Shown here one piece after another: positions 23,852 to 59,437 of a stretch of 64,000 nt of DNA; the first letter of the stretch is position 1, and every line of letters begins with the position of its first letter. The notes below the pieces were generated by a model. That model was given only the letters and a program-made list of their open reading frames with translations, did not search any database and was not told the DNA's origin. Location: positions 1 to 64,000 of the IMG/VR virus record IMGVR_UViG_3300043036_000358; one strand, written 5' to 3'. Source of the DNA: a virus (lineage: Duplodnaviria > Caudoviricetes). Made by a program: the position numbers and the translations under genes.

Positions 23852-23888
23852 AAAAAGCCCCCGCGTTGCAAAACTCGGGGGCTTTTTT
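23852..23888 (+). terminator. Rho-independent terminator ending the replication arm
   Basis: AAAAAGCCCCCCG-loop-CGGGGGGCTTTTTT. Confidence 0.9.
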
Positions 23889-23990
23889 GTCGTTAAAAAT
23901 TGTCAGGGTGCGCCAATGCACTTGCCCAAAAATACCCTGCATAATTTCTTATTACCGTGCATTTTAACTCCTGGAACCCTAAAAGTTGGG

Positions 23991-24019
23991 TTGCAGTACA
24001 TACCATTTTGTTGTATAAT
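23991..24019 (+). promoter_or_regulatory. sigma70-type promoter of the accessory operon
   Basis: TTGCAG-17 bp-TATAAT with extended -10 TG. Confidence 0.8.
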
Positions 24020-24099
24020 TATATCAGTTCTTAAATTTTTAGGAGCTGCGCGATGATACGCAGTATCATATCAATCCACTACACAGAGATTAATTTTAT

Positions 24100-25029
24100 A
24101 TGGATGATACTACAACTAGCGTACCTATTTCTACAGCAGCAGCTGAAGAAGCTATGGATGCGCTCAAGAAACAAGCTAGCTTTGCGGAACAATATTATGC
24201 AAAACTAGCATCTCAAGTTAAAGAAACCTTAAAGGAAAATAAAATGGCAGAAGTAATGACACCCGGTATGATTATGGGTATGGGCAACGGCGGCGGTGAT
24301 GGTTTATTTGGTGGCGGAGGCGGCTTAGTAGGTGGTCTTATCCTAGGAAGCCTATTGCGCAACGGTAATGGCGGATTTTTAGGTGGTGATGGTAATGGTG
24401 CTGGTGCAGCACTAGGCGCAACACTACGTAACCCACCAGAACAAAACCAAGCTAATATGGATTTAATGGCTAGTATTGGGCAAGTTGACAAAGCAGTTGC
24501 AGTTTCAACAGCAGCAATGGAAGCTTCACAAGCTCTACAAAGTTCTAGCATTGTTAGTCAACTAAACAACGTAGCTGGTTCACTAGCTTCTCGTGTTGAC
24601 AATGTAAAAGATATTGTTAATGCTAATGCAGTTGCGCTAATGCAAGGTCAAGCAGCTATTCAGCAAAACATCATGGAAAATCGTTATGAATTATCCAAGG
24701 ATATTACTAACGATGGTGAAAAGACTCGTGCATTGATTACATCACAGTACGAACTAAACCTACAGCGTCAATTAGCTGATGCAAATGCAGCGATTATTGA
24801 ACTACGTAGCCGTGAGTACAGTGGTAACACAGCACGTGGTATTGAAGTTACTACAACAAACAACATCAACCAGATGCAACAACAACAGCAACAACAAGCT
24901 CAGTATGGTCAACTGGCCAATCTGATTTGGAGCTTAGGTCAAAGCATCCGTAACGATAACAGCGCAATCAACGTTGGTAGCGGTACACAAACTTCTACAC
25001 CAACAAACACAAATACTAACATTCGTTAA
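24100..25029 (+). CDS. Gly-rich / coiled-coil / Q,N-rich protein of unknown function; second in-frame start at 24244
   Basis: GGGGGLVGGLILGSLL hydrophobic Gly segment, long amphipathic A/L/Q helices, Q7 run, ...NVGSGTQTSTPTNTNTNIR end; AAGGA SD before ATG 24244. Confidence 0.85.
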   Translation: MDDTTTSVPISTAAAEEAMDALKKQASFAEQYYAKLASQVKETLKENKMAEVMTPGMIMGMGNGGGDGLFGGGGGLVGGLILGSLLRNGNGGFLGGDGNGAGAALGATLRNPPEQNQANMDLMASIGQVDKAVAVSTAAMEASQALQSSSIVSQLNNVAGSLASRVDNVKDIVNANAVALMQGQAAIQQNIMENRYELSKDITNDGEKTRALITSQYELNLQRQLADANAAIIELRSREYSGNTARGIEVTTTNNINQMQQQQQQQAQYGQLANLIWSLGQSIRNDNSAINVGSGTQTSTPTNTNTNIR

Positions 25030-25042
25030 TATTTAGGTTACT

Positions 25043-25077
25043 AAGCCCCCAAGACCACAAGTCGTGGGGGCTTTTTT
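25043..25077 (+). terminator. internal Rho-independent terminator
   Basis: AAGCCCCC..GAC-CACAA-GTC..GGGGGCTT-TTTT. Confidence 0.8.
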
Positions 25078-25091
25078 CATAAGGAATAAGA

Positions 25092-26021
25092 ATGTTATTT
25101 CAACAACAACAACAAGGTCCATTTGGCTGGCCAATGGGACCTTTTATACCTATAGCCCCTATTATTGATGACTGTGATTTATTTATCAACAGCATAGTAA
25201 ACGGTCAACCAGGGCCGCCTGGACCAGCAGGACCAGCAGGACCAGAAGGGCCACCGGGACCTGAAGGGCCGCCAGGGCCGCCAGGACCTGGCAGTGTATC
25301 AAATTTTGCTGACTTTTTTGCACTAATGCCACCTGATAATGCAGCAACAGTTGCTGTGGGTGCTGACGTGGACTTCCCTCAAGATGGACCTACATCAGCT
25401 ACAACTATTACCAGAATATCTCCTAGTTCTTTTAATTTAGCAGATATTGGCTCTTATTTAGTACAATTTCAAGCTAGCGTAGACGAAGCCGGACAGCTCA
25501 TACTAACGCTAAATGGCGTTGATTTGGCCTATACTGTTAGCGGTCGTGCAACAGGAACTAACCAAATTGTCGGTACAGTAATTGTTACGACTACTGTTGC
25601 AAATTCTGTTTTAACAGTACGCAACCCAGCAGGAAACTCAACTGCATTAACAATCACACCTAATGCTGGAGGCACTAGACCTGCCTCTGCGCAGCTCGTA
25701 ATTGTTCAGTTGAACGGAACTGGAGTAACTCCGGTAGCTCCTAGTCCTGTGCCTACAACTATTGTGACCACTACACCATATGCAGTGCTATTAACTGATT
25801 ACTACTTAGCCGTAAACGTAGCAGGGCCAGCTAGTGTAGTATTACCGGTTGCACCCGTTGGTACGGTCTTTGTTGTAAAAGACACAGATGGTGATGCCAA
25901 TATTAGCCCAATTACAGTAACTGCTAGCACTACTATTGATGGTACAGCTAGTGCACTTATTAACTCACCATACGGTAGCCTAACCTTTATATTTAACGGC
26001 ACCGAGTGGAACATTGTTTAA
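25092..26021 (+). CDS. collagen-like protein with a BclA C-terminal (C1q/TNF-like) domain and an extra C-terminal beta domain
   Basis: About nine GPx triplets, then ADFFALMPPDNAATVA.G.DV.FPQDGP...FNLA.IG.Y.V.FQ.SV.EAGQLILTLNG..LAYTV.GRATGT.QIVG...LTVRNPAGNSTALTITP.AGG as in Firmicute BclA-type proteins. Confidence 0.85.
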   Translation: MLFQQQQQGPFGWPMGPFIPIAPIIDDCDLFINSIVNGQPGPPGPAGPAGPEGPPGPEGPPGPPGPGSVSNFADFFALMPPDNAATVAVGADVDFPQDGPTSATTITRISPSSFNLADIGSYLVQFQASVDEAGQLILTLNGVDLAYTVSGRATGTNQIVGTVIVTTTVANSVLTVRNPAGNSTALTITPNAGGTRPASAQLVIVQLNGTGVTPVAPSPVPTTIVTTTPYAVLLTDYYLAVNVAGPASVVLPVAPVGTVFVVKDTDGDANISPITVTASTTIDGTASALINSPYGSLTFIFNGTEWNIV

Positions 26022-26030
26022 GGAACAAAC

Positions 26031-26429
26031 ATGTCATATACAAATAACCCAACCTCAATCCTAGCCGGTACAGGTATTACAGTAACACCAACAACAGGTA
26101 CAGGTGCTAATACTATTACAATTAGTGCAACTGGAACACCAGTTCAAGCAGTGCAAATTGCTGTAGCAACACCAGTTACGGTAACAAATGCCGATGACAT
26201 AGTAAGTGTTGAAGTACCAGGTCCTGTTGCTGTAGCAGTTAATCTACCTGCTGGCGTTACTGGACAAATATTTTACGTTAAAGATGGACTAGGTTTAGCA
26301 GCACCTGCAACGCCTATTACTATTACTCCTGTTGCAGGTACCATCGATGGTTCGGCAACAGCTACTATTGACACACCTTATGGAGCATTAACCCTAGCGT
26401 ACAGTGGTGTGCAGTGGTTAATATTGTAA
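26031..26429 (+). CDS. small fibre-like protein, paralogue of the C-terminal domain of the previous gene
   Basis: AGTGITVT..TITIS shaft motif plus V.LPAG..G..F.VKD...ITI...TIDG...I..PYG.LT...G..W.I. Confidence 0.8.
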   Translation: MSYTNNPTSILAGTGITVTPTTGTGANTITISATGTPVQAVQIAVATPVTVTNADDIVSVEVPGPVAVAVNLPAGVTGQIFYVKDGLGLAAPATPITITPVAGTIDGSATATIDTPYGALTLAYSGVQWLIL

Positions 26430-26430
26430 T

Positions 26431-26904
26431 ATGTCCTATACTAGACAACCTAACTCGGTACTAGCGGGTAGGGCTTTGGCCCAAAGTCCTGCTGCTAGTA
26501 CAACATCACCACCTGGTGTAGTACCAGTTACACTTCATGCTAATATTTCAACTACGACTGAACTGGGCGTAGTGCAAGTTGGTAGTGGTTTAAGCATAAC
26601 GCCACTTGGTGTGTTATCAGTAGAAACCGCAGGACTAGTACAAGTAAAAATAACTAATGTTAACTATACAGCATTAGCTAGCGATTATTATATTGGTGCT
26701 AATAGTAATGGTATAACTATTACACTGCCAACAGGCGTTACGGGTAAAATTTACATAGTAAAAAATCAAGTAAATGGAAACATAACTCTGGTAGGTACTG
26801 GTGGGCAACAAATCGACAGCAGCAATACTAAAACTTTAGGTTCTAATGATTGCGTTATTGTGTTATTCAACGGCACTCGCTGGAGTATAATCTCAGAGGA
26901 ATAA
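26431..26904 (+). CDS. small fibre-like protein, third paralogue
   Basis: TTTELGVVQVGSGLSIT..GVLS fibre repeat plus ITLP.G..GKIYIVKN...IT.......ID...FNGTRWSII. Confidence 0.8.
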   Translation: MSYTRQPNSVLAGRALAQSPAASTTSPPGVVPVTLHANISTTTELGVVQVGSGLSITPLGVLSVETAGLVQVKITNVNYTALASDYYIGANSNGITITLPTGVTGKIYIVKNQVNGNITLVGTGGQQIDSSNTKTLGSNDCVIVLFNGTRWSIISEE

Positions 26905-26905
26905 A

Positions 26906-27343
26906 ATGGAAGAACTAAAACTTGCGCTTAAACGCGCTTTTGCAACAACTTATGCGTTCCTAGTAAAAGCCGAAAACTTTCACTGGAACGTAACAGGCCC
27001 AAACTTTGTGCAACATCACGAATTGTTTGGTAAAATATACGACGAGGTAGATGATGAGCTGGATGACTTTGCTGAGCGTTTGCGCGCTTTACGCTGTTAT
27101 GTGCCTGCTAGTTTCGCACAACTTAGTGAAAATTCGGCGATTTTGGATACGTTGGAAATATTACCACCAACCGAAATGGTACGTACACTATACGTTGACA
27201 ACGGAAAAATACACACGGCGCTAATGGCGGCCTATGCACTTGCTGAAACTGAAGGTGAACACGGACTTAGTGCGTTTTTAAGTGAACGCATTGATGCACA
27301 CCGCAAACACGGTTGGATGTTGTATTCAACAATGCAACCATAA
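26906..27343 (+). CDS. dps: Dps-family mini-ferritin
   Basis: FHWNVTGPNFVQHHELF..IY......D.FAER ferroxidase motifs; H.K..WML end. Confidence 0.93.
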   Translation: MEELKLALKRAFATTYAFLVKAENFHWNVTGPNFVQHHELFGKIYDEVDDELDDFAERLRALRCYVPASFAQLSENSAILDTLEILPPTEMVRTLYVDNGKIHTALMAAYALAETEGEHGLSAFLSERIDAHRKHGWMLYSTMQP

Positions 27344-27344
27344 C

Positions 27345-27384
27345 AAAAAGCCCCTAACTAGCAATAGTTAGGGGCTTTTCTTTA
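27345..27384. terminator. bidirectional terminator between the converging arms
   Basis: AAAAAGCCCCTAACTA-GCAA-TAGTTAGGGGCTTTTCTTT. Confidence 0.92.
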
Positions 27385-28020: not shown

Positions 28021-28347
28021 TTATTTTACTGCCTGTTTTTGCAAGTACTTAATCTTTTCTTCGTGAATAGAAATAGCTTCCCTATTTGACTGGATAGCAT
28101 CACGGTTCCGTTGAATTGCTTCTGTTAGATCCTGACGTAGTCTTTCACGAGCTAGTTCAGCACCAGTATTTGGAGCTTGTTTATTGTCGCTAGTTACAAC
28201 TAAACTAACCTTGCTTTCTAAGATAGTTACTTGATGTGCTAGTGTACCCACTGCACTTAGTAAATAACCTACACCTGCTATAATTAGAGGTAACAAGGCA
28301 AATAGTAGTTTTTCTATAAACATACCTTTTTCGTTTTGATCTGCCAT
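28021..28347 (-). CDS. single-TM coiled-coil protein (holin/antiholin-like candidate)
   Basis: N-terminal TM LLFALLPLIIAGVGYLL followed by a heptad helix. Confidence 0.6.
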   Translation of the reverse strand: MADQNEKGMFIEKLLFALLPLIIAGVGYLLSAVGTLAHQVTILESKVSLVVTSDNKQAPNTGAELARERLRQDLTEAIQRNRDAIQSNREAISIHEEKIKYLQKQAVK

Positions 28348-29183: not shown

Positions 29184-29384
29184 TTACTTCGGGGCTTTTG
29201 GTGGTACGGGTGTACCTTCCAGCTTTTTATGAATTTTTACTTGTTTACAAACTTCTTTTGGTTTCTTAGTTTTTGGGTCTGTTTGTTCTACACAAACCCG
29301 CTTGGTTTCGGCAGCAAGCACTGAGTTATTATATCCCAGGAAAAAAATGCCTGAGACTAAGGCTAATACTAGTAATGGATTCAT
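29184..29384 (-). CDS. small secreted basic protein with two Cys
   Basis: Signal peptide ending VLA-A, then KRVC...KEVCK..KIHKKLEGT.VP. Confidence 0.75.
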   Translation of the reverse strand: MNPLLVLALVSGIFFLGYNNSVLAAETKRVCVEQTDPKTKKPKEVCKQVKIHKKLEGTPVPPKAPK

Positions 29385-29837
29385 TTAAATCTCCGGTTGT
29401 GGTGCTGGTTGTGGTGCTGGCTTGCCATTAATAAGTCTGATCTCTGCTAGTGCAGTACCATTAAAACCAGCTGTAGTAGATAACCCAGTATGAAATGTTG
29501 GTTCTTGGCGCGGCACATAGCTGGTTTTGGCAGCAGCTGCGGCATTGGCTTGAGCTTGTTTCATCATAGCCAGTGTAGCGTCTACTTCCTCCTTGCTGCC
29601 ACCAGCCAACATAATTCCACTTAGAGTACCAGTTAAGAACGTGGCGATTGGAACAATTAACTCAAAAAACTTTTGGTCAATTGGTGAGATTGCGTTTAGT
29701 GGTTGTGTTACAAATATCAAGCTATAAAGAACAACAAACACAATACCTGTTAGTGTGAGGGCTAAGCACACTCCAATAAAGAACTTTAGGCGAGCCATTA
29801 GCTGCTCGTCGGTGTATAAGAAATCGTTACTTTGCAC
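29385..29837 (-). CDS. two-TM membrane protein
   Basis: RLKFFIGVCLALTLTGIVFVVLYSLIF...FFELIVPIATFLTGTLSGIMLAG. Confidence 0.8.
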   Translation of the reverse strand: MQSNDFLYTDEQLMARLKFFIGVCLALTLTGIVFVVLYSLIFVTQPLNAISPIDQKFFELIVPIATFLTGTLSGIMLAGGSKEEVDATLAMMKQAQANAAAAAKTSYVPRQEPTFHTGLSTTAGFNGTALAEIRLINGKPAPQPAPQPEI

Positions 29838-30093
29838 AGGCTACTCCGGGGTTGGTTGCTTGAGGCACTACAGCACCTTTTGGGTCTAAGCGCGGATCGC
29901 GCTGACCTTTAAAAATATGATCTGGACAAGTGCGTGTTACGTCGCAGATAGGTCGATGACACTGAGGTGTATCCCAGTTATCAGGATTCTGGCACGGGTA
30001 TCTAAAACGATCACTACCAAAAAATGACAGTGCTATTGGTAACAACACAAGCAGCCCAAGCCACTTAAATAACTTTATATCATTCATTACCAT
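29827..30093 (-). CDS. membrane-anchored Cys-rich periplasmic protein
   Basis: N-terminal TM then DRFRYPCQNP.NW..PQC.RPICDVTRTCP. Confidence 0.8.
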   Translation of the reverse strand: MVMNDIKLFKWLGLLVLLPIALSFFGSDRFRYPCQNPDNWDTPQCHRPICDVTRTCPDHIFKGQRDPRLDPKGAVVPQATNPGVACAK

Positions 30094-30575
30094 CTCCCAG
30101 CATTGCTGCCTAGTTCATAGAAGATCCCAGTAAGGTATATGCCTAAGGCTAGTACAACAGCTAAAATACTGCCCCAAAAAGCATTTTCTAGTAGCTTTGC
30201 GCGTCTTCTTAGCTTTTCTTTTTCAGCAGCTTCTCGGTCTTCTCGTAGTTTTTTACGAAGCTGTATAAACTCGTGGTAGCCGGCACTGCCCAACTCCTGC
30301 AGCTCACCATAAGTAAACATATGGTGAATTTCTTTTTCCATCTGCTGAAGTTGAGCTTTAGCAGCCATTATATCAAATGCCTGACCAGTAACAGAGCCAA
30401 GTACTTTAGCTCCAGGTCTAGAGCTTTTATTAATAGCTTCGGTTAAGTTTCCAGCATGGCTAGCCCACTTACTTAGTTGCGAGTAAATATCTTGAGCTTC
30501 TCGCCCAACTGCAATTGCTTTCTTAACTCCGTTAAAAGCAGCACTAGTTAAAGCTAGTATTGTTACTGGATCCAT
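30087..30575 (-). CDS. conserved phage protein with amphipathic N-terminus, coiled coil and C-terminal TM
   Basis: MDPVTILA...AAF..VKK.I..G.E...(coiled coil)...FWGSILAVVLALGIYLTGIF. Confidence 0.8.
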   Translation of the reverse strand: MDPVTILALTSAAFNGVKKAIAVGREAQDIYSQLSKWASHAGNLTEAINKSSRPGAKVLGSVTGQAFDIMAAKAQLQQMEKEIHHMFTYGELQELGSAGYHEFIQLRKKLREDREAAEKEKLRRRAKLLENAFWGSILAVVLALGIYLTGIFYELGSNAGRW

Positions 30576-30587
30576 AATCCCGCTCCT

Positions 30588-31205
30588 TTAGGTATCTAAT
30601 ACGTGTAGTGCATGCTCATAATGCTTTATTCGGTCTTCAAGTCCAATAGTACCACCATTGATACGTTTGGTTAGTGTTAATATATCGCCACTATCTGCCC
30701 ACTGATTTAGATTATTAGTTTCCCAAAACCAGCAAGCCGACTGCGCAGCGCCTTCAAATGTTTCTAAGTACTCAGCCGCCTCCTCAACACCGATGCCAAG
30801 ACTAGCAGCAAACCAGCTGTAGTTATCGCGGCCGGTTAGTTGAATAAGCCCGCGTCCACAATATCTGTACCCATCACCGGACTCTGGTGGCCCATTACCC
30901 ATGCGGTTGGCGTATACAAGATTGGCAATTGCGGCTTGCTTGCCTGCATACTGCTGCGCTAGTTCGTCACTAGGAAAGTATTTAGGAAATATTTTGCGTA
31001 GCGTGGCTGCACGATAGTTTAGGTTTTCACGTAGTGCCGTAAACCCGCCGGACTCGTGCGCACACTGTGCTATAAAAGCTGCAATACGTTGTGGGGTATT
31101 GATTTCGTAGTCTGGCAGGAGTTTTGCGAGCGCACTATGCCAGTGCTTGACGTGTGAGTTTCGTGGCAGCAACTGCTGTAGTTGTTGTAGTGTTAGTTCG
31201 GTCAC
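30588..31205 (-). CDS. endolysin, glycoside hydrolase family 19
   Basis: R.AAF.AQ.AHESGGF..L.ENLNY, VYANRMGN, GDG..Y.GRG.IQLTGR.NY, T.RINGG..GL.DR. Confidence 0.93.
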   Translation of the reverse strand: MTELTLQQLQQLLPRNSHVKHWHSALAKLLPDYEINTPQRIAAFIAQCAHESGGFTALRENLNYRAATLRKIFPKYFPSDELAQQYAGKQAAIANLVYANRMGNGPPESGDGYRYCGRGLIQLTGRDNYSWFAASLGIGVEEAAEYLETFEGAAQSACWFWETNNLNQWADSGDILTLTKRINGGTIGLEDRIKHYEHALHVLDT

Positions 31206-31462
31206 TTTAACCCTTCATGGATAATTTTTTGTTGCTGATACCATTCCTGCCATGCAGTTAATTTAACCACACACTGGTAGTATTGAGTGTAGTTTTGGTT
31301 AACCACCTCGGCTACTTGGCTTAGTGTGGGGCTACTGGGTAACTGTTGTAGCTCACCACAAGCCTGCGTGCTTTGCAAGCCTGGGGCCTCTGGCCAGTGC
31401 TGCGTGACTGGCACAACTGAGGCGCAGCCGGTTAAAAATAGTGCTAGTAGTATAACTTTCAC
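31202..31462 (-). CDS. o-spanin (Rz1-like lipoprotein)
   Basis: Lipobox LFLTG-C, Pro-rich mature part, YYQC...W..WY. Confidence 0.8.
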   Translation of the reverse strand: MKVILLALFLTGCASVVPVTQHWPEAPGLQSTQACGELQQLPSSPTLSQVAEVVNQNYTQYYQCVVKLTAWQEWYQQQKIIHEGLK

Positions 31463-31878
31463 TTTGGTGCCTTTGCTGCACTATTATGTGCTGTAACAAA
31501 CTCAACTGGTATTTGACAAGTTGCATCATGTTTTACAACTTCACGAGTAATGTACTCGGTAGTAGCTTCACCACGTTGACGTATAACTTGAGTTTTGGTA
31601 ATCACGCGTTCTTTTATTGTTTCGTTTACTTGTTGCGATTTAGCTTCTGCAACCTCAACTTTATGCTGCAAGTCTTTTGCGGCTTGTTGCCACACACCAT
31701 CGGCGTATAAGAGTCCCATAATAAAAATTACGGCAAGCACTACCACACCACCGACTATTTTAATAGGCAACTGGTACGTTTTTAGTGGAACTAGTTGTGA
31801 TAGAAAATAGCCGGAAAATCCCGCTAGCAATAGTAGCCCCCAAAACCAATCTGGAAAAATTTCTAAAATCCAAAACAT
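31459..31878 (-). CDS. i-spanin (Rz-like)
   Basis: Two N-terminal TMs, periplasmic coiled coil, C.IP.EFV.AHN.AA; overlaps the o-spanin by 4 nt. Confidence 0.8.
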   Translation of the reverse strand: MFWILEIFPDWFWGLLLLAGFSGYFLSQLVPLKTYQLPIKIVGGVVVLAVIFIMGLLYADGVWQQAAKDLQHKVEVAEAKSQQVNETIKERVITKTQVIRQRGEATTEYITREVVKHDATCQIPVEFVTAHNSAAKAPK

Positions 31879-32495: not shown

Positions 32496-33884
32496 TTAAG
32501 CATTAAATGTAATTAAAATTTGGCCCGGTTTACCGCTTACTCCGGCATAGCGATTGGCTACATTGGGGTTTAAGGGGCCTTTCCCAGCGCCTCCATAACC
32601 AACAGTTCCTTGTGGGTTCGGTGGGGTGCTAGAAATTCCAGAAGATGCTGTTGACCCGGAGCCACGATAAACCTTATTTGATCCACTGCCACTACCGCGT
32701 TGAAACCCTCCAGTACTTCCTTGGTCAGCAAAATGCTGTGGATTTGGGGCTCCGCAAAAAGCTCCGCCACCGCCGTGACCTGAACCAAGGTAGGTTAAGC
32801 CAGCAGCTCTATCCGTCTCGTTTGCTGCTGTATTGATAGAAGATGGGCCCAAACAAGCCAAAACTGCTTCTTCAAAAAATACCGCTGTGCCTGCGGTACG
32901 TGTAGCATCAAGATGTAAGCCGCCACCGATAACACCCTTAACAAAACCGGGATTATTAGCAACAAACCCATTACCGTGTGCAGTTGTAGTAGCCCCTGTA
33001 CCAGAGCCAGAGTAAAACCCAGCAGACCCAGAATCAGCAGAACCGCCACTACCTCCACTACCGGAACTGCCGACGCTCCAATTTATTCCACCACCTCCAC
33101 CACCTCCACCAGCAATTAACACACAATTTGCTGCGGAGAACAGGTCTTTATAGTTTGCGCTGTTCCAGTTTAAGGCTGAATCTGGATACCAACTAGACCC
33201 TTCAAGAACATACACTGCACTGGCCCAGCCTGCATTTCCGGTGTACCAAGTAGCCGACCCACCAGCCCCACCAGCCCCCGCCATACAGCAAAGTACTTGT
33301 CCTACAAAAACATCAGTTCCTACGGTAATTGTTGTTGTGGCATACCCACCAGCTCCTCCGTTACCCGGACTACTACCAGAAGTCCACGAGCCTCCTGAAC
33401 CACCGCCGCCGCCCCAAGCTTGAATGGTAATTGTTGAACAGCCGCTAGGAACAACAAAATTACTAACCGCGTTTTCAAACTCAGGATAATACGTAGCACC
33501 CGGGGTTCTTAAATCACTAGAAGTAAGAGTTGCTCCAATCACGACGTTTGAGCCAAGATAAGTGTAGTCTGTGTAACCAGTATCCAGACCCTCATGAAAA
33601 GAACTTACAACTGCATTAACTGTACCAATAACAAACGCAGGTCTTCTGCTTGAAAACAGCACAGTGTTATTGATTGAGTTAGTGTTTCCAATCGTTGGTG
33701 TAATAAATGCGTTTTTGCCTCTGAAGTCAGACAAAGCAATCTGGGACAAAGCAGTTCTTTTACCAGCTAAATACCGTAGTGTGGTGCTGTCAAGCGAAAG
33801 CTCCGTAGCGTTAGCTGCACCTAAAAGCGAAGAGTTAATTAAACCAAAACTAAGATTGGTTTGGCTGTATAAAATTAGTGCCAT
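32496..33884 (-). CDS. glycine-rich fibre-tip adhesin (polyglycine-II type)
   Basis: Short helical N-terminus (..LSDFRGK) then AWGGGGG, GGAGG, IAGGGGGGG repeats and G..G.ILI end. Confidence 0.75.
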   Translation of the reverse strand: MALILYSQTNLSFGLINSSLLGAANATELSLDSTTLRYLAGKRTALSQIALSDFRGKNAFITPTIGNTNSINNTVLFSSRRPAFVIGTVNAVVSSFHEGLDTGYTDYTYLGSNVVIGATLTSSDLRTPGATYYPEFENAVSNFVVPSGCSTITIQAWGGGGGSGGSWTSGSSPGNGGAGGYATTTITVGTDVFVGQVLCCMAGAGGAGGSATWYTGNAGWASAVYVLEGSSWYPDSALNWNSANYKDLFSAANCVLIAGGGGGGGGINWSVGSSGSGGSGGSADSGSAGFYSGSGTGATTTAHGNGFVANNPGFVKGVIGGGLHLDATRTAGTAVFFEEAVLACLGPSSINTAANETDRAAGLTYLGSGHGGGGAFCGAPNPQHFADQGSTGGFQRGSGSGSNKVYRGSGSTASSGISSTPPNPQGTVGYGGAGKGPLNPNVANRYAGVSGKPGQILITFNA

Positions 33885-44630: not shown

Positions 44631-47600
44631 CTGGTTTTCCTGTCAAGTTCAAGTATTGCTTCTATTAGTAATGGAATTAACTTTTCATAGCTAACTGCTA
44701 GTGTACCATCTTGTCTAGTATGTACTGCTTCTGGTAATTGTTCTAACACTTCTTGTGCTATAACACCTACATCATGTGCCTTTATTAACCCCAGTTTAAC
44801 TTCCTTTTGATACTTACTTAAGTAATCTGGTGTCCAATCATAGTTGTAACCACCTAGTGCTCTTAGCTTTTGTAAAGGTTTTGTTATTCGCAAAATATTT
44901 TGCTTTAGTCTACGGTCACTAGAGTTATATGCTATAATATTTCCTGTTGCTGAAATGGCGCCAGTAGTAACAATGTCACCAATAACATCAATACCAGCAT
45001 TAACATTAAGCTTGCGAGTAATTGTTACATTGCCCTCAAAAGTACCGGCCTGACTAATTCCTCCATAACTTTTTGCAACTACCGCAGTACAACTAGCAAC
45101 AGGTGCACTTGCATATAAACAAACTGCATCACCAACGGCAATTAAACCTATACCTTTTCTATTACCTGGATACTGCCAAGTAGAAGGATCCGCTTGAGGA
45201 TCATTATTACCTGCTCCTTCTGCGACAGCAAATACACCAACGTTCCACGCACTATACAGAGTTAAGTCTGGAGCATATCCAGCTAGGCCTACTCGTAGTA
45301 CATTTTTTTCAGGATCGTTTGCAGGAATAGGGTAAAGAGCCGGGTTTAGTGCACTAACACCGCCTTGAGCATAACCTAGTAATGCAGATCTTGCCTTGTA
45401 GGTTTGCTCTAGCAAGGCTATACCTTTATCATTAGTCCAATTTACTGTTACAGTATTAGTCTGGCCTTTAGCAACAACTTGGCCTTGCATATAGACATTA
45501 GTACCGTAAAAATCACCAGTATCTTTTTTAATATAGTAGCCTGCTTGTACTGCACCAGTAGAGTTACTATATATATTTAAGAAAGACTGTAAGTCTGGTA
45601 CTCCGGTACTAACTGTTTGAGACTGGTTAATATACTGCCAATTATCACTACGTATATCTTGAAATATACTAGCAGCAATTGGTGCACTCCATTTAGTAGT
45701 ATTAAGTGCAATACCTTCAGGCGCACTAGCGTCATCTTCATTATATCGTCCATAACTATACCATACTACATTACCTATTGTTGCTGTAGGTGCTGTATCA
45801 GTCCAAACAGAAGCACCACTTGTTGGTACAGAAGTATTTCCAGTAGTAGTTGTAGAGTAAGCTGGAGCTCCTAGATTTTGTGCTACAAGCTTATATGCTA
45901 CACGAGTAGATATACCTTTTGCTCCTGTACCCCCTGTTGTGCTAGCGCCTGTGGCACCAGCTTTGGATTTAGCGAAGCTTTGGCGTACTATTTGAGTACC
46001 GGTCTGACCGGTTGTAGTTACATAGCTTATGGTATAGTCTATATATGCAATATCTGCAGTCATTGCTGAATGTGTGTCATAGTCTATTGTACTAGCAGAT
46101 AATGTAGGTGAAGTATCTGCAGTAATACCACTAGCAGATGTACTAGAAACATACCAAGTACCATTAGCATATGGAGAAGCTGCGTCTACTGTTAAAAGTG
46201 TATTACCTTGCTTTACACGTATAGTAGTACCACTACCTGTATATCCCGAAGTTGCAACAGTGCCATCGTTTGCAGCAGGTATAACATGAGCACTGTTTGA
46301 TAACTCAACAGTTATCTGCTCAGTACCATCATTAATACGATATAGTGTAAAGCTATCGGTTACAGTACCAATAGTAGCTGTTACAATTACTGTTCCAACC
46401 GTTACTCCCAGAGCAGCAAACTGAGCTCCGGTTATTGTAATGGTATTGGTTGCTTGTGTAAAAGTTACAGCACCTGTAGTATTACCAGCACTAGTTACTA
46501 AAACCCCAGTGCGAGTATATGCTGTAGCTGTAAAAGTAGGTGTACCAGTAATATTTTTAAGAGCAGCAGTTATTACTGTGTTAGCTGTTACTGGTGTTGT
46601 TGCAAATTGATCCTTAAATACAAAATCACTGTTAGTTGCAGATAGCTGAATTAGTGGAGCAGCAATACCTGCTTTAGATTTAGCGAAGCTTTGGCGTACT
46701 GTTTGCGTACCTGCTTGACCGGTTGTAGTTATATAGGTTATGGTATAGTCTATATACGCATTATCAGCAGTCATTGCTGAATGTGTGTCATAGTCTATTG
46801 TACTAGCAGATAATGTAGGTGAAGTATCTGCAGTAATACCACTGGCAGATGTACTAGAAACATACCAAGTACCATTAGCGTATGGAGAAGTTGCATCTAC
46901 TGTTAAAAGTGTATTACCTTGCTTTACACGTATAGTAGTACCACTACCAATATAGTTAGCTGATACTGTGCTACCACTTTCTGTAGCGGGTATTAGGTGA
47001 GAACTATTTGATAACTCAACAGTTATCTGCTCAGTACCATCATTAATACGATATAGTGTAAAGCTATCGGTTACAGTACCAATAGTAGCTGTTACAATTA
47101 CTGTACCAACCGTTACTCCCAGAGCAGCAAACTGAGCTCCGGTTATTGTAATGGTATTGGTTGCTTGTGTAAAAGCTACAGCACCTGTAGTATTACCTGC
47201 ACTAGTTACTAGCGCGCCTGCACGAGTATACGCTGTAGCTGTAAAAGTAGGTGTACCTGTAATATTTTTAAGCGCTGCTGTTATTACTGTGTTAGCTGTT
47301 ACTGGTGTTGTTGCAAACTCATCCTTAAATACAAAATCACTGTTAGTTACAGATAGCTGAATTAATGGAGCGTTAGCTCCAGGTGCACCGCTATTAGATT
47401 TATTTAGTGTAAGTATTTTGCTTAGTGTAAGAGTACCGAGTTTTGCATTATATGTTGCGCTAGCACTAACTGCACTTATAGCGCTAATAGCAATAACTCC
47501 AGTAGTAGCGTTTATAGTACTGGTCATACCAGTTTCGGATGCTTTTTCCCAAGTAACGCCGTCACTATTAGTAAGCACAGCGCTTCCACGTAAAACTACT

Positions 47601-54767: not shown

Positions 54768-57700
54768 TTATCTCCTTACAATGGAAGGACGTTGTCCAAA
54801 TCCATTAGTTAGTGCTTGCTGGGTACTTGAACCAGGCTTGCTTAATTGGTCTGCTACCATGTCACCTACCATAACCTCAATCTTACGATTGCCCTTGCTG
54901 TCCACAGTTTCTTTGGTTTCTGCTTTTTCAGTACTATAGTTATTAATAACTACTTCTACATTGCTTCCACCACCCTGTGCGCGAACGCCCAGATTTCCAC
55001 TACCGTCACGTGTAAGTGGCATAATGGCTTCTGGGCCGGCTTCGCCCATTAGCCCTGTGCCTTTTGCAAACTTAAATAAGGTTGGTGAATTAACAATACT
55101 ATTGGTAAATGCACCACCTTTGGCAAATGCCTCAATACCATAGTCAAAGGCATTACCTTTGGCGCTAGGAGCCATCATATTAAGTCCAGCATCAAACATC
55201 GCGTTACCCGCAGCATTTGTATCGCCCATAGTAGCAAAGTAGTTGAAGCCTGCATTAAGTATACCACCAAAACCACCAGAACCTCTAATAAAGGACATTT
55301 GTGCTTGCTGAATTTCGTAGCGCAGTAATCCTTCTATAAAGCTAGAAATCATTGACTCAAAACTGAGTTTACCAGTTTTAGTAAATTCTACAATGGCATC
55401 TTCCATGCCTTTCATGGAATTTTCAAATATATCTGCATAAGCTTTTTGGCGAACACTTAGTTCACCGAGTATATTTAATCGTTCTTTGTCTGCGGTGCCT
55501 TGTTCTCTGATTCTCTGTGTAGAGTCAGTATAAAACTTCAGTGCATTTGCTTTGTCGGTTTCAATTTGAGCACTACGTTGAGGTGTTACATTTCCGGCAG
55601 CTATTTCTTTATTTAAAGCAACAGTTTTATTAATATAATCTGATAAAGCCTGATTTAACTGCTGTGCAGTATTCAGCTCCACTCTTTTTAACTCATTGAG
55701 ATTAGTCTGATCTTCGTACTGCTGCTGACTAATTGTTTTTTGAGCTAGTTTTGTATCCAAGGACTTTTGATCTATGTCCAGGCTTTGTACTCTGGTATCG
55801 TACTCTAGTGTACTTGCTGCGTTATTATCAGAAAGAATTTGAGATATTCTATCATAGTCTCTGGCAGTAGTTTCGACTAATAAGGCTGACTTAGCTTGAG
55901 TATCTGTAGTTGCTTCTAGTATAGCGAAGCGAGCCTCAGCGTCCTTTGTTTGCTTTTCATAGGTAGGTAAATCAGTTCTTGCTGCTGTTAGTGCCTCTTG
56001 ACCTGCCTGAGCAGCAGCTCCACTAATACCGTTAACTGCTGGCTTAGTTACTATGTCTATAACACCTTTTGCTTGTGACACAGTTTGTCGTTCTGCTATA
56101 GTAGCTTGACGTTTTCTCTCTGCTTCAGTAACTAATCTGAATTGCTTGTTTATAGTGTCTCTATCTTCTAAGGTTAAGCCTTCTTGAGCTAGTTGGGCAT
56201 CTCTTTGTACTTCTTTCTCTTTTATGTAATCAGCATCATTTCTATTGTCTTGCTCAAATAGTGCTAACTTTTTATCAAGTGCTCTTTTTTGCTCGTTGCT
56301 TATCTTATTTATATCTAGTACGGCTAGTTGAGACTGCATACCTGATCTTAGCTGCTGCTGTTCAAAATAAGCACCTTTTAACTCTGCTGGAACGTTTTCT
56401 TTTGCAAGTGTACCCCTGTAGATTTGCTCTTCAGCTTGGGCTAATCCAAGTTCTTTGCTTATTTCTGCTTGCTTTTCTGGCGTAGCATTTTGTAGTTTTT
56501 TCTCTAGATCCATTACTTTCTGAGAAGCAGTTGATATTTTTAATTGGTTAGTAAGCGTATAGATTGATTGAATTTCTTGCTTGCGAATATCAATTGACTT
56601 ATTTTCCAAAGTCATCTGTGCTTCAATAGTTGCCTGTGACTTGGGTAGTGCTGAAACTAAACCTTTTTGCTGATCTATACCGGCTTGTGCGGATGCTGTT
56701 TTTACTTTTGCTAAAGCTATTTTAAAAGCGTACTCCATGGAATCAGCTGTAGCTTTCTTTAAAACATTACCAAGTTCAGCTAAACTCTTTTTATCTGCTT
56801 GTAGCTTTACAAAAATAGCATCTCGTTGCAGTGAATCATATGCTTGAGTATCAATATCTTCCCAATAACTTGCACCACTCAAGGATTTAAGTTGAAGCTC
56901 TGCGTCTTGTATTGCTTTTGTTAATCTTTTGAAATCCTCAGCAACAGCTAAAATTTGAGCGGCCGACTCTGGCGAAAAGGCTTGGAGCTTACTTGTGTCT
57001 GCTATTATATCATTAAAAGTAGCTGCCGCAACTTTTGGATTCTCAAATGCCTTAGTCATGATATCTGACTGCTTGGCAATTGCACTAGCATAGTTAGATA
57101 CTACATCGTTTGGTTTTAATGTATTTTCTAGTGCTGTAAATGCTGTAGTTACATTTTTGAATCCATCACGTATTAGGGCAACAGAACTAGCTACTGCTTG
57201 GTTCTTTACTTTTAATTCTTCGGCGTCTTTTGTTAATTGTTTTAACTTTTTAGGGTCAATACTATCTAGTGCATCGTCTATTGCAAAAAAGTTTAAGTCG
57301 TCTATTGATAGTAGATTCTTTAACTTACCCTCAAATTCGCTTTTTAATGCCGGATCTTCTATGGTTTCTAACAACTTGGTTATGCTAGAGGCTAATCCTT
57401 TGGCTACATCATCTTGTTTTGATAGACCTACCAGGCTTTTTAAGCTTTCCCATACCATATCTACACCGTTGGAAGCTTTATCAAAATCCGCAAACTTATT
57501 AACTAACTTATCCATAGCATCTACTAGGCCAACTGTTGCATTGGCTTTGGCCATTATTGACTCTGAAGAAAGTACGTTGTTGAACTTCTCAAAAGTACCG
57601 GTGGCAGTTTTTACAGCTTCATCTGATTGTTCAATGGCGGAACCTAGAGCCTCGGCTTCTTTACGGTTTTTTGACATAAAGGAGTATAGAGTAGATAGTG

Positions 57701-59381
57701 CTCCAACTACTAGACCAACTGTACCAAAAAATCCAGTTACAACACTTGCAGCTCTTGAAATAGCGGTGGTTGCGATTGCAGCTGCACCGCCTACTCTGGT
57801 AAATCCAGCAGATATTCCTGTTAATTTTTCGTCTTTGATACCTTTGTTTAGCTTTTCCCAAGACTGTGACATAGAACCGGTTGAAGCATTTTCCGCCGCC
57901 TCAGATATCAATGCGGATCTAGACTTGGAGATTCTTGCTTTATTTAGCTCATCTCTGGCAAAACCTGCTGCAGATAACTTGCTAGCACCTGATATGTTTT
58001 TATTTGTTTGATCGCTGATCTTTTCTAGTAATTTTTCGTGTTCTTTTTCGGACTTTATCCAACCATCTAAAGCTACACGAGCTTCTTTATAAGCCGCGGC
58101 CAATTGTTTATTACCAGCTGCAGCTGCTTCTGCTTGTTTTGACTGTAAATATCCTCGATCTTCTTTGCTAAGTGTTGTGCCTTGTAATATATTTTGAGTA
58201 CGTTCATCAAAAACACCAGCCATACCCTTGGACTTTTTAAGTCTTCGCTCTGCTTTTTCAAAACTAGCTAATTTTGCATCTGCCTCAGCCTCGGACATAT
58301 TAATAATGTACTGAAACTGATCTTTTTCAATCTTTTTAATAGCGTCGCTTTTTTGTTGCCACTTTTTCTCAGACTCATCTGCTGATGAAGCTAAAGCTGA
58401 CTTATACTGTCCTATTGCTGGTATAGCTTGTTTTAGTAGCAAACTACCTAAACCTGCTACCACTATGCCCAAAGCAGTTGGACTTGAGCTTAGCAAGCTG
58501 ATTAGTGGTCCAAGTGCTGTGTTAATAAAACCCAGTACTTTGTTAGACAAGTTTGTTAGTGAGGCAGCTAACTGGTCGTAGGGGTTTGCCTCAATTTTGA
58601 TACTGCCAAACTTAGCAGTACCTTCTGCAAGCACAGCATTAGCAAATGCCTGACGTTTTTCAAAGTCTGTTAAACTAGCTGCTGATTTACCAATTCTTTT
58701 TGCATAATCTTCTGTTGCAGCACCTACTTTGGTAAAGATACCCAATTCGTCTAATAGTTCTGGTTCTAGCTTGGTAATACCACGAGTAAGACGACTAACA
58801 GCATCGGCCATGTCGATACCTAGGGCTTTACTAGCATTATTTGCTACTTTTCCCAACTGTTCGAACTGTGCTTGACTTAGTCCACTAGACACTGCTTTAA
58901 CAGTTGCAGAAACGGCATCTTTTAAACTGATTGCACCATCCGAGGCTTCTACAAATCTTTGCGCCATGCTGCCCAAAGCTATACCACTGGAAATTCCCAG
59001 TTGATTCATACCTTGAATCATGTTAGTGACGTTTGCGGCGTTACTTAGTGCACTAAACGCAGCGCTAACGGCAAATATGTTAGCTGCCCAGGTAGCGTAT
59101 AGGCGAACTAGTCCACCAAGACCTTGTGCTTGGTTGGCAAAATCACGAGCACCGGCTCCTGTTGCTCCCATACTTCCGCGAGCACGGCCGTATTCAGCGT
59201 TTTCACTACCACCCATTGCGGAGCTATAGCTAGACTTTACGGCGCCGCTACCAGACTTAGTACCAGTACTAAGTCTCTTTGTTTTCTCTAATTCACGGTT
59301 TAAGCTTTCAACTTCACTCTTACGACTTTTAATACTGCCTTTGGTGTCTTCTAAACTTAAATCTATTTTGACTGTTGCCAT
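54768..59381 (-). CDS. tail tape measure protein
   Basis: About 1537-aa helical ORF (ATG 59381 with AAGGAG SD); L..GI.KLEPELLDELGI N-terminal motif, FAKGG...GEAGPEAIMPL lambda-type C-terminus. Confidence 0.95.
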   Translation of the reverse strand: MATVKIDLSLEDTKGSIKSRKSEVESLNRELEKTKRLSTGTKSGSGAVKSSYSSAMGGSENAEYGRARGSMGATGAGARDFANQAQGLGGLVRLYATWAANIFAVSAAFSALSNAANVTNMIQGMNQLGISSGIALGSMAQRFVEASDGAISLKDAVSATVKAVSSGLSQAQFEQLGKVANNASKALGIDMADAVSRLTRGITKLEPELLDELGIFTKVGAATEDYAKRIGKSAASLTDFEKRQAFANAVLAEGTAKFGSIKIEANPYDQLAASLTNLSNKVLGFINTALGPLISLLSSSPTALGIVVAGLGSLLLKQAIPAIGQYKSALASSADESEKKWQQKSDAIKKIEKDQFQYIINMSEAEADAKLASFEKAERRLKKSKGMAGVFDERTQNILQGTTLSKEDRGYLQSKQAEAAAAGNKQLAAAYKEARVALDGWIKSEKEHEKLLEKISDQTNKNISGASKLSAAGFARDELNKARISKSRSALISEAAENASTGSMSQSWEKLNKGIKDEKLTGISAGFTRVGGAAAIATTAISRAASVVTGFFGTVGLVVGALSTLYSFMSKNRKEAEALGSAIEQSDEAVKTATGTFEKFNNVLSSESIMAKANATVGLVDAMDKLVNKFADFDKASNGVDMVWESLKSLVGLSKQDDVAKGLASSITKLLETIEDPALKSEFEGKLKNLLSIDDLNFFAIDDALDSIDPKKLKQLTKDAEELKVKNQAVASSVALIRDGFKNVTTAFTALENTLKPNDVVSNYASAIAKQSDIMTKAFENPKVAAATFNDIIADTSKLQAFSPESAAQILAVAEDFKRLTKAIQDAELQLKSLSGASYWEDIDTQAYDSLQRDAIFVKLQADKKSLAELGNVLKKATADSMEYAFKIALAKVKTASAQAGIDQQKGLVSALPKSQATIEAQMTLENKSIDIRKQEIQSIYTLTNQLKISTASQKVMDLEKKLQNATPEKQAEISKELGLAQAEEQIYRGTLAKENVPAELKGAYFEQQQLRSGMQSQLAVLDINKISNEQKRALDKKLALFEQDNRNDADYIKEKEVQRDAQLAQEGLTLEDRDTINKQFRLVTEAERKRQATIAERQTVSQAKGVIDIVTKPAVNGISGAAAQAGQEALTAARTDLPTYEKQTKDAEARFAILEATTDTQAKSALLVETTARDYDRISQILSDNNAASTLEYDTRVQSLDIDQKSLDTKLAQKTISQQQYEDQTNLNELKRVELNTAQQLNQALSDYINKTVALNKEIAAGNVTPQRSAQIETDKANALKFYTDSTQRIREQGTADKERLNILGELSVRQKAYADIFENSMKGMEDAIVEFTKTGKLSFESMISSFIEGLLRYEIQQAQMSFIRGSGGFGGILNAGFNYFATMGDTNAAGNAMFDAGLNMMAPSAKGNAFDYGIEAFAKGGAFTNSIVNSPTLFKFAKGTGLMGEAGPEAIMPLTRDGSGNLGVRAQGGGSNVEVVINNYSTEKAETKETVDSKGNRKIEVMVGDMVADQLSKPGSSTQQALTNGFGQRPSIVRR

Positions 59382-59437
59382 CTTTGCTCCTTTACTTAGA
59401 ACCTGTGGCTTAAATTGCACAAACTTTGATACAGACC

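Follow-up and report, generated by a model that had tools for sequence, protein, structure and literature searches.

Cassette layout and expression signals

The stretch of DNA analysed here (the window) comprises the first 64,000 nucleotides (nt) of the 72,974-bp IMG/VR virus record IMGVR_UViG_3300043036_000358 (Duplodnaviria; Caudoviricetes), which is estimated to be about 68% complete. It harbours a cassette of five genes on the plus strand, referred to as G1 to G4 and Dps. G1 (24100-25029) encodes a glycine-rich, coiled-coil protein of 309 amino acids (aa), G2 (25092-26021) a composite fibre protein, also of 309 aa, G3 (26031-26429) and G4 (26431-26904) short fibre paralogues of 132 and 157 aa, and the last gene (26906-27343) a Dps-like ferritin of 145 aa. 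The genes downstream of G2 are tightly spaced, with gaps of 9, 1 and 1 nt (G2-G3, G3-G4 and G4-Dps). Upstream, the cassette is delimited by an intrinsic terminator on the plus strand (23856-23888), a GC-rich hairpin with a T-run that ends the replication-arm operon, and its stem is invariant and its loop variable in 10 related loci. Downstream, it ends at a bidirectional intrinsic terminator (27346-27379) with a stem of 15-16 bp, common to the convergent minus-strand genes. An earlier interpretation made without database searches (the sequence-only reading) had described a self-contained five-gene operon between two terminators, on the strand opposite to the tail genes. The coordinates and terminators were confirmed, and the genes do form a transcription unit. 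Their unity was overstated, since only G1 and one fibre gene are conserved across relatives.

Alignment of related loci located a promoter on the plus strand, with the -35 box TTGCAG at 23991-23996, a 17-nt spacer and the -10 box TATAAT at 24014-24019. The promoter is of the sigma70, host type, and its -10 box is invariant in the 10 related loci. The cassette thus has its own promoter, as the sequence-only reading proposed, but not a textbook extended -10 promoter, because the TG directly abuts TATAAT. A simple promoter scan did not have TTGCAG-17-TATAAT among its listed sites. In the same 10 loci, the approximately 200 nt from the upstream terminator to the start of G1 are more conserved than the G1 protein: the non-coding core of 23889-24019 is nearly invariant, and the G1 proteins of the aligned loci are 61-79% identical. 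Words containing TGCA recur about every 20 nt upstream of the -35 box. A genome scan for a motif shared with the G1 upstream region returned chance 11-mers only, and no similar extended motif.

Two hairpins were predicted in the plus-strand leader, at 24028-24045 and 24046-24063 (RNAalifold, 15 loci). In hairpin 1 the pairing is kept through two-sided changes at two positions (AU/UA/UG and UA/CG), and hairpin 2 is invariant. An upstream open reading frame (ORF) of 51 codons at 24053 was considered as a gene and rejected, because its apparent Shine-Dalgarno (SD) sequence and ATG, which form part of a 3′ arm and a loop of these hairpins (the ATG in the loop of hairpin 2), show no conservation as signals for translation.

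The internal terminator after G1, also proposed earlier, is real. It lies on the plus strand at 25043-25077, in the gap between G1 and G2, and has a folding energy of -25.2 kcal/mol (z -4.3 against shuffles). The hairpin is followed by TTTTTT and then by the ribosome-binding site of G2, AAGGA. This terminator presumably attenuates transcription past G1, and the downstream genes would therefore be made by read-through, presumably at a lower level. Promoter, leader and terminator together would make G1 far more abundant than the fibres. The arrangement suggested before, an abundant lead subunit followed by minor trimeric fibres, fits these signals as well as the folds described below.

The G1 family

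The AlphaFold2 (AF2) model of G1, computed with 103 homologues, shows a helix at residues 12-45, a Gly-rich region of low confidence at 47-112 that includes a short hydrophobic helix, a long helix of about 165 residues at 113-277, and a low-confidence tail. The predicted local distance difference test score (pLDDT) of the long helix exceeds 90 at residues 131-240. Within the clade, conservation is highest in the Q/N-rich tail and the last third of the rod, and lowest in the N-terminal helix and in the middle of the rod. Positions invariant across the whole family are found in three places, namely a Gly/Leu segment, a DGEKTRALI motif and a stretch of alternating Gln. The uncharged Gly/Leu stretch of about 19 residues is nearly invariant family-wide. 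Its hydrophobicity suggests a borderline membrane helix at best, the best 19-residue Kyte-Doolittle window of G1 scoring 1.57 compared with 2.1-2.7 in the transmembrane (TM) proteins of the lysis cassette. G1 has no signal peptide. A role of G1 as a lysis protein (spanin or holin) was rejected, given the lack of a clear TM helix and the location of the lysis cassette elsewhere, with candidates of its own.

The G1 family comprises more than 2161 members at 90% clustering, which fall into 284 clusters at 50%. The sole name that its homologues carry in their sources is hypothetical protein. The family appears to be confined to phages, as judged from a representative library that carries no taxonomy. 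Searches of Pfam, NCBIfam and PADLOC gave no matches for G1, and hence no known defence or anti-defence family, which does not exclude such a role; in PHROGs the only match was phrog_9288, a family without assigned function. Sequence and profile comparison with the PDB gave low-complexity or helical noise only (syntaxin, stathmin and the G/F region of DnaJ), the ESM Atlas returned only unnamed viral clusters, and a Foldseek search of the G1 model against BFVD gave no match below E 0.4.

Some members of the family carry alternative N-terminal extensions, which are either rich in His or form a beta-rich domain approximately 100 residues long. A variant with the N-terminal beta-domain (P0254) had no usable matches in the Atlas. 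No fused form turned up in a search at lengths of 542 aa or more; in the 575-aa form P0342 the N-terminus is of low complexity and unrelated. The His-rich extensions of P0306, P0338, P0359 and other relatives consist of H runs and of HK or HD/HE repeats, and the short form of G1 described below begins with a Met-rich peptide, MAEVMTPGMIMGMG. These compositions would make metal binding by the N-termini possible.

G1 contains a second in-frame start at 24244 (M49), from which a form of 261 aa would be made. An SD sequence, AAGGA or AGGAG, lies 7-8 nt upstream of the M49 ATG in 20 out of 20 close relatives (sites across L002-L076). The codons that overlap it encode differing residues (LKENK, LKEPK, TEGKT, TGDTK), and numerous relatives start exactly at the Met equivalent to M49. 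The retention of the SD sequence across different codons, together with these relatives, makes two nested products likely, and G1 is probably synthesised as a long and a short isoform.

The fibre proteins G2, G3 and G4

G2 consists of an N-terminal proline/aromatic peptide (aa 1-36), a collagen segment (aa 37-66), a BclA/C1q-type head (aa 67-208) and an XD1-like beta-sandwich (aa 219-309). Its AF2 model has a mean pLDDT of 81, with 98 in the C-terminal domain (CTD) and disorder in the first 36 residues. The sequence itself shows the Gly-X-Y repeat immediately before the head, and the match of the repeat to Pfam Collagen (E 4.4e-4) stays under the gathering score because the repeat is short. 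For the head, phmmer detected PDB 9h38 (F-BclA-CTD, E 4e-7) and 1wck (BclA, E 1.8e-5), and structure comparison with VIA-align gave Z 19.2 and a root-mean-square deviation (rmsd) of 2.2 Å for 9h38, and Z 18.9 and 1.8 Å for 1wck. Homologues carry BclA_C (PF18573), G2 itself being below the Pfam cut-off.

Head and collagen together share 71% identity with the Desulfuribacillus protein P0152 and 66-87% with numerous proteins of Firmicutes. The first fibre of this phage has gained a BclA/C1q-type head. A link between Gly-rich coiled-coil genes and BclA-type genes in Firmicute prophages, mentioned in the sequence-only reading, was not seen: two Firmicute genes of the head and collagen type are lone chromosomal genes with no G1-like neighbour.

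G2, G3 and G4 share their C-terminal domain, as seen by alignment and by a hidden Markov model (HMM) of the CTD, which detects G3 at 3.5e-26 and G4 at 2.9e-26. The CTD of G2 matches the XD1 domain of CBA120 TSP4 (residues 79-175) with Z 13.1 and an rmsd of 1.7 Å, 90 out of 91 residues being aligned at 24% identity. Further structural matches are a baseplate protein of Klebsiella phage KP1 (Z 11.4, 20% identity), the distal knob of the Pa223 capsid spike (Z 10.1) and the PRD1 spike P5 (Z 11.8); those in BFVD are phage collagen, tailspike and Gp9/Gp10 proteins. By sequence, the shared domain weakly matches T4 gp9 and phrog_967, phrog_20556 and phrog_972. G3 has weak matches to T4 gp9 and to baseplate or fibre PHROGs, and G4 matches phrog_37034.

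G3 and G4 have in common an N-terminal MSYT..P.S.LAG motif and fibre-type repeats, motifs that suggest a beta shaft in both. The shared domain points to G3 and G4 as fibre proteins. The fibre-type folds proposed earlier were thus borne out for collagen, BclA head and shared CTD by sequence and by the G2 model, and for G3 and G4 by the shared domain. As predicted from sequence and from the single-chain model of G2, the architecture of G2-G4 would be that of short trimeric phage fibres, with a disordered N-terminal peptide, a short shaft and a CTD knob. Export signals are absent from G2-G4, and among the tail proteins encoded here the narrow CTD HMM found no further copies. Across relatives, identity is 66-94% in the N-terminal peptide of G2, compared with 27-86% in the knob; the better conservation of the peptide indicates an anchor at the N-terminus and a variable end outside.

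Conservation of the locus and the position of Dps

We retrieved 80 viral loci with a relative of G1, of which the 59 non-redundant ones with at least 1.5 kb of downstream sequence were counted. The position of the locus is fixed: a ribonucleotide reductase (RNR) gene and a small gene flank it on one side, and the convergent genes of a 212-aa protein and of PhoH on the other. A fibre gene with the shared CTD follows G1 in 54 of the 59 loci; it lies at most 450 nt from G1 in 50 of them, and in the remaining 4 a Dps gene intervenes. Five loci have G1 without a fibre gene. The number of fibre genes per locus ranges from 0 to 4, in fixed order. The usual partner of G1 is a protein of 150-220 aa with a Q-rich, Pro-rich N-terminal peptide containing PFGWP, a ..DxDLFIN.. 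motif, collagen and an XD1 knob. The BclA head is a rare insertion, found only in the window, in L019-21 and in L076, that is, in the window and two non-redundant loci among the 59. The neighbourhood comparison proposed in the sequence-only reading hence bears out a recurrent linkage of G1 to a collagen fibre gene, but not to Dps, which is present in 18 loci, or to the BclA head. This distribution defines G1 and one collagen fibre as the conserved core. G1 is 55-80% identical among relatives and the neighbouring RNR 91-96%. The locus headed by G1 thus outpaces the genome backbone in divergence, a pattern to be expected of surface or host-interaction genes and the usual mark of the latter.

The identity of Dps was confirmed by matches to Pfam Ferritin (PF00210; 1.3e-17, 64.5 bits against a cut-off of 24.5), phrog_3636 (2e-30) and PDB 8ff9 (E 1.6e-19, residues 7-143). 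By eye, helices 1-2 contain FHW, QHH and DE/DD, candidate residues for the ferroxidase pattern HW..H..D..E. E. coli Dps binds DNA via a Lys-rich N-terminal tail, and such a tail is absent from this protein. Dps is missing from 41 of the 59 loci; where present, it stands before or after the fibres, and some loci have a second copy on the other strand. Dps was therefore rejected as the functional partner of the fibres, which leaves the Dps-coupled dormancy or persistence structure of the sequence-only reading without a basis. Dps is probably a passenger, or cargo, of a variable hot spot, outside the fibre system.

Distant homologues of G1

Distant homologues of G1 were found in Acinetobacter phage At2, Iodobacter myovirus PhiPLPE (gp38), Flavobacterium phage FL-1 and one metagenomic contig. 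PhiPLPE gp38 carries the annotation putative tail fibre, and it adjoins two virion proteins confirmed by mass spectrometry and another gene annotated as putative tail fibre. In At2 and in locus L083, beta-rich genes with fibre-like sequences lie just upstream of the G1 homologue. L083 has its G1 homologue among accessory genes, adjoining an Acb2/Tad1-like gene, and in FL-1 the homologue and a small ORF form a two-gene unit of their own on the opposite strand.

In four unrelated phages a small acidic helical ORF (50-95 aa, no TM segment) stands directly 3′ of the G1 homologue (L082 8663-9243, L083 3416-3613, L084 9696-9848 and L085 7401-7598). It may represent a partner of G1 that was lost in the T5-like clade or replaced by the collagen fibre. 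None of these distant homologues has collagen, XD1 or Dps neighbours. The sequence-only reading had held that homologues occurring unlinked in relatives would speak against its five-gene unit; this is what we found for the distant homologues of G1, which have none of the other four genes.

Genome context and host

The major tail protein is 33% identical to its counterparts in T5-like Klebsiella phages, and the phage is a siphophage distantly similar to T5, in a clade whose members are roughly 100 kb in size. A DNA search found no close relative of the cassette among cultured phages. Encoded on the minus strand is a complete tail module of the siphovirus type, which includes a J-like central fibre and two large fibre proteins of 1172 and 1586 aa. 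A 1550-aa ORF (54768-59420) is probably the tape measure, judged only by its size and position. The head module is complete as well, with terS, terL, portal, an apparent fusion of protease and major capsid protein, adaptor and tail terminator, and is also on the minus strand. All tail genes without exception lie on this strand, and the cassette on the plus strand, whose arm further contains tRNAs and a class II RNR.

The lysis cassette (29184-31878), on the minus strand, comprises a two-TM holin candidate (29385-29837), a protein with a C-terminal TM segment (30087-30575), a chitinase/GH19-like endolysin identified by PHROG matches (30588-31205), a lipobox protein as candidate o-spanin (31202-31462) and, overlapping it, a candidate i-spanin (31459-31878). 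Because this cassette has an endolysin and a candidate o-spanin lipoprotein, the host is taken to be Gram-negative. A further gene encodes a TM plus coiled-coil protein (28021-28347).

Between the lysis genes and the 1172-aa fibre gene, a minus-strand gene (32496-33884) encodes a 462-aa protein with long Gly/Ser-rich runs and weak matches to minor tail protein PHROGs. In the gene of the 1586-aa fibre, at about 46200-47290, identical 11-mers occur 711 nt apart (46201/46912, 46358/47069 and 46570/47281), which suggests an internal tandem duplication of about 237 codons. In the part of the record beyond the window, a single 638-aa ORF (L088 3281-5197, genome 64280-66196) has matches among the head maturation protease families as well as the major head protein families, so that protease and capsid protein appear to be fused. 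The large terminase gene is flanked by two homing-endonuclease-like genes matching PHROGs of the GIY-YIG/HNH type, one on the plus strand (L088 6978-7559, genome 67977-68558) and one on the minus strand (L088 8821-9504, genome 69820-70503).

Interpretation

We tentatively favour, somewhat short of calling it probable, an independently transcribed cassette of accessory virion fibres with an adhesin or decoration function, which occupies a variable hot spot flanked by the replication arm and the PhoH/lysis/tail arm. The N-terminal peptides would anchor the fibre trimers on the particle or on an assembly of G1, and the C-terminal knobs and the BclA head would face outward and bind surface glycans or other ligands. 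G1 would self-assemble via its rod and conserved tail and serve as base or assembly partner for the fibres. Dps would serve separately, as an auxiliary gene that sequesters iron or protects against peroxide, and share the transcription unit by chance here.

Several points weigh against this interpretation. G1 has no detectable relative of known function by sequence, profile or structure searches. The Gly-rich stretch of G1 scores as a borderline membrane helix (1.57), and the cassette is located on the early-gene strand with a host-type promoter. The five loci without a fibre gene and the distant homologues without a collagen or XD1 neighbour imply that G1 does not need the fibres. The G1 tail, the best conserved part of the protein, is kept in siphoviruses and in a myovirus alike, which speaks against a specific capsid or phage tail as its binding partner; the G1 tail more likely serves self-assembly or binds a conserved target.

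The fibres could instead belong to the tail tip, with G2-G4 as adaptors of a receptor-binding complex, or side fibres, on the large tail fibres, and G1 as a whisker or a fibre-assembly factor like T4 fibritin or gp57A. This appears unlikely, although the shared domain is nearest by identity to tailspike and baseplate modules (TSP4 XD1 at 24%, KP1 at 20%, and T4 gp9), the PHROG matches are baseplate and fibre-connector families, and PhiPLPE gp38 is a putative tail fibre beside a gene with a tail-fibre annotation. XD1 modules embedded in a chain are described as spacers unable to dock trimeric partners (PMC8825819), and the narrow CTD HMM finds no additional copies in the tail proteins of this genome. 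Moreover, the cassette stands apart from the tail operon on the other strand, and homologues of G1 span phages of different tail types.

G1 could also be a non-structural, highly expressed protein directed at the host envelope or cytoplasm, as a membrane-anchored coiled coil, a self-assembling scaffold or a condensate, which merely shares an accessory island with unrelated fibre and Dps genes. The host-type promoter and the early-gene strand are consistent with this, as are the nearly invariant uncharged Gly/Leu stretch, the two isoforms from nested starts and the accessory setting of L083 beside the Acb2/Tad1-like gene. So is the occurrence of G1 alone in five related loci and, in distant phages, with only the small acidic helical ORF after it. 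The hydrophobicity of that stretch is merely borderline, however, and there is neither a signal peptide nor a PADLOC match. The lysis cassette already supplies candidates for holin and spanins, and the retention of a downstream fibre gene in the same order in 54 of the 59 loci exceeds what a hot spot would lead one to expect. We therefore regard a purely host-directed G1 as doubtful.

A bolder proposal, which we consider a slim chance, is that G1 founds a new class of self-assembling phage protein, with a cohesive Gly-rich head resembling GLFG, a rod about 25 nm long, a Q/N-rich tail and two nested isoforms. It would assemble into a scaffold or a coat, either within the cell or on the particle, and interchangeable XD1-knob fibres would plug into this structure by their N-terminal peptides. 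Phages could then add, drop or swap the heads, including heads from spore-forming Firmicutes. A dedicated structure co-expressed with Dps, which would protect the phage DNA in a persistent form or coat the infected cell, is very improbable: Dps is co-transcribed with the fibres here and in some relatives, but it is missing from most loci, mobile within the locus and devoid of the Lys-rich tail, G2-G4 have no export signals, and G1-G4 match no dormancy-related family in Pfam, PHROGs, NCBIfam or PADLOC.

Returning to the accessory virion-fibre cassette, the short fibres, if shown to be swappable surface modules, would offer a simple, naturally occurring way to alter the display on a phage particle. 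The BclA head is almost identical to proteins of Firmicutes, which makes it a clear reuse of a spore-surface domain by a phage of a Gram-negative host. The function of G1, once found, would annotate thousands of genes.

Comparison with known systems

T4 fibritin (Wac) and the phi29 head fibre gp8.5 are long, helical, fibrous accessory proteins of the virion that are dispensable for assembly. No sequence or fold relation of G1 to either turned up, no dedicated comparison having been made. Unlike them, G1 has a Gly-rich hydrophobic head and a Q/N-rich tail.

In phage Pa223, a 40-residue peptide at the N-terminus is enough to anchor a trimeric spike that ends in a C-terminal knob (bioRxiv 10.1101/2025.06.11.659172). 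Similar to Pa223 gp52 and PRD1 P5, which are short homotrimers with an N-terminal anchor, a shaft (a triple beta-helix in gp52) and a C-terminal jelly-roll knob, G2-G4 would combine an N-terminal anchor with a distal knob. The shaft of the PRD1 spike P5 is collagen-like. The identity of the G2-G4 CTD to these spikes is low (12-18%).

The F-BclA-CTD of PDB 9h38 belongs to the tip fibril of F-ENA endospore appendages (PMC12357932). Like BclA of the Bacillus exosporium and F-BclA of F-ENA, G2 has a Pro-rich hydrophobic peptide before the collagen, and the collagen is followed by a C1q/TNF-like head. Unlike BclA, G2 is encoded by a phage of a Gram-negative host, its collagen has only about 10 triplets, and its head is internal, with the XD1-like domain after it. 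No anchor gene of the ExsFA/BxpB type was recognised in the window, where no sequence search was aimed at one.

The CTD of G2-G4 is a 9-stranded beta-sandwich like XD1 of CBA120 TSP4 (PDB 7rej), a mixed sandwich of about 90-100 residues at 80-178, and the middle domain of T4 gp9 (PDB 1qex), the latter being described as closest to the XD1 fold (PMC8825819). In TSP4 and gp9 this module is internal, a spacer, whereas in G2-G4 it ends the protein, which leaves one face of the trimer free. The XD1 fold also binds glycans in CpaA and StcE.

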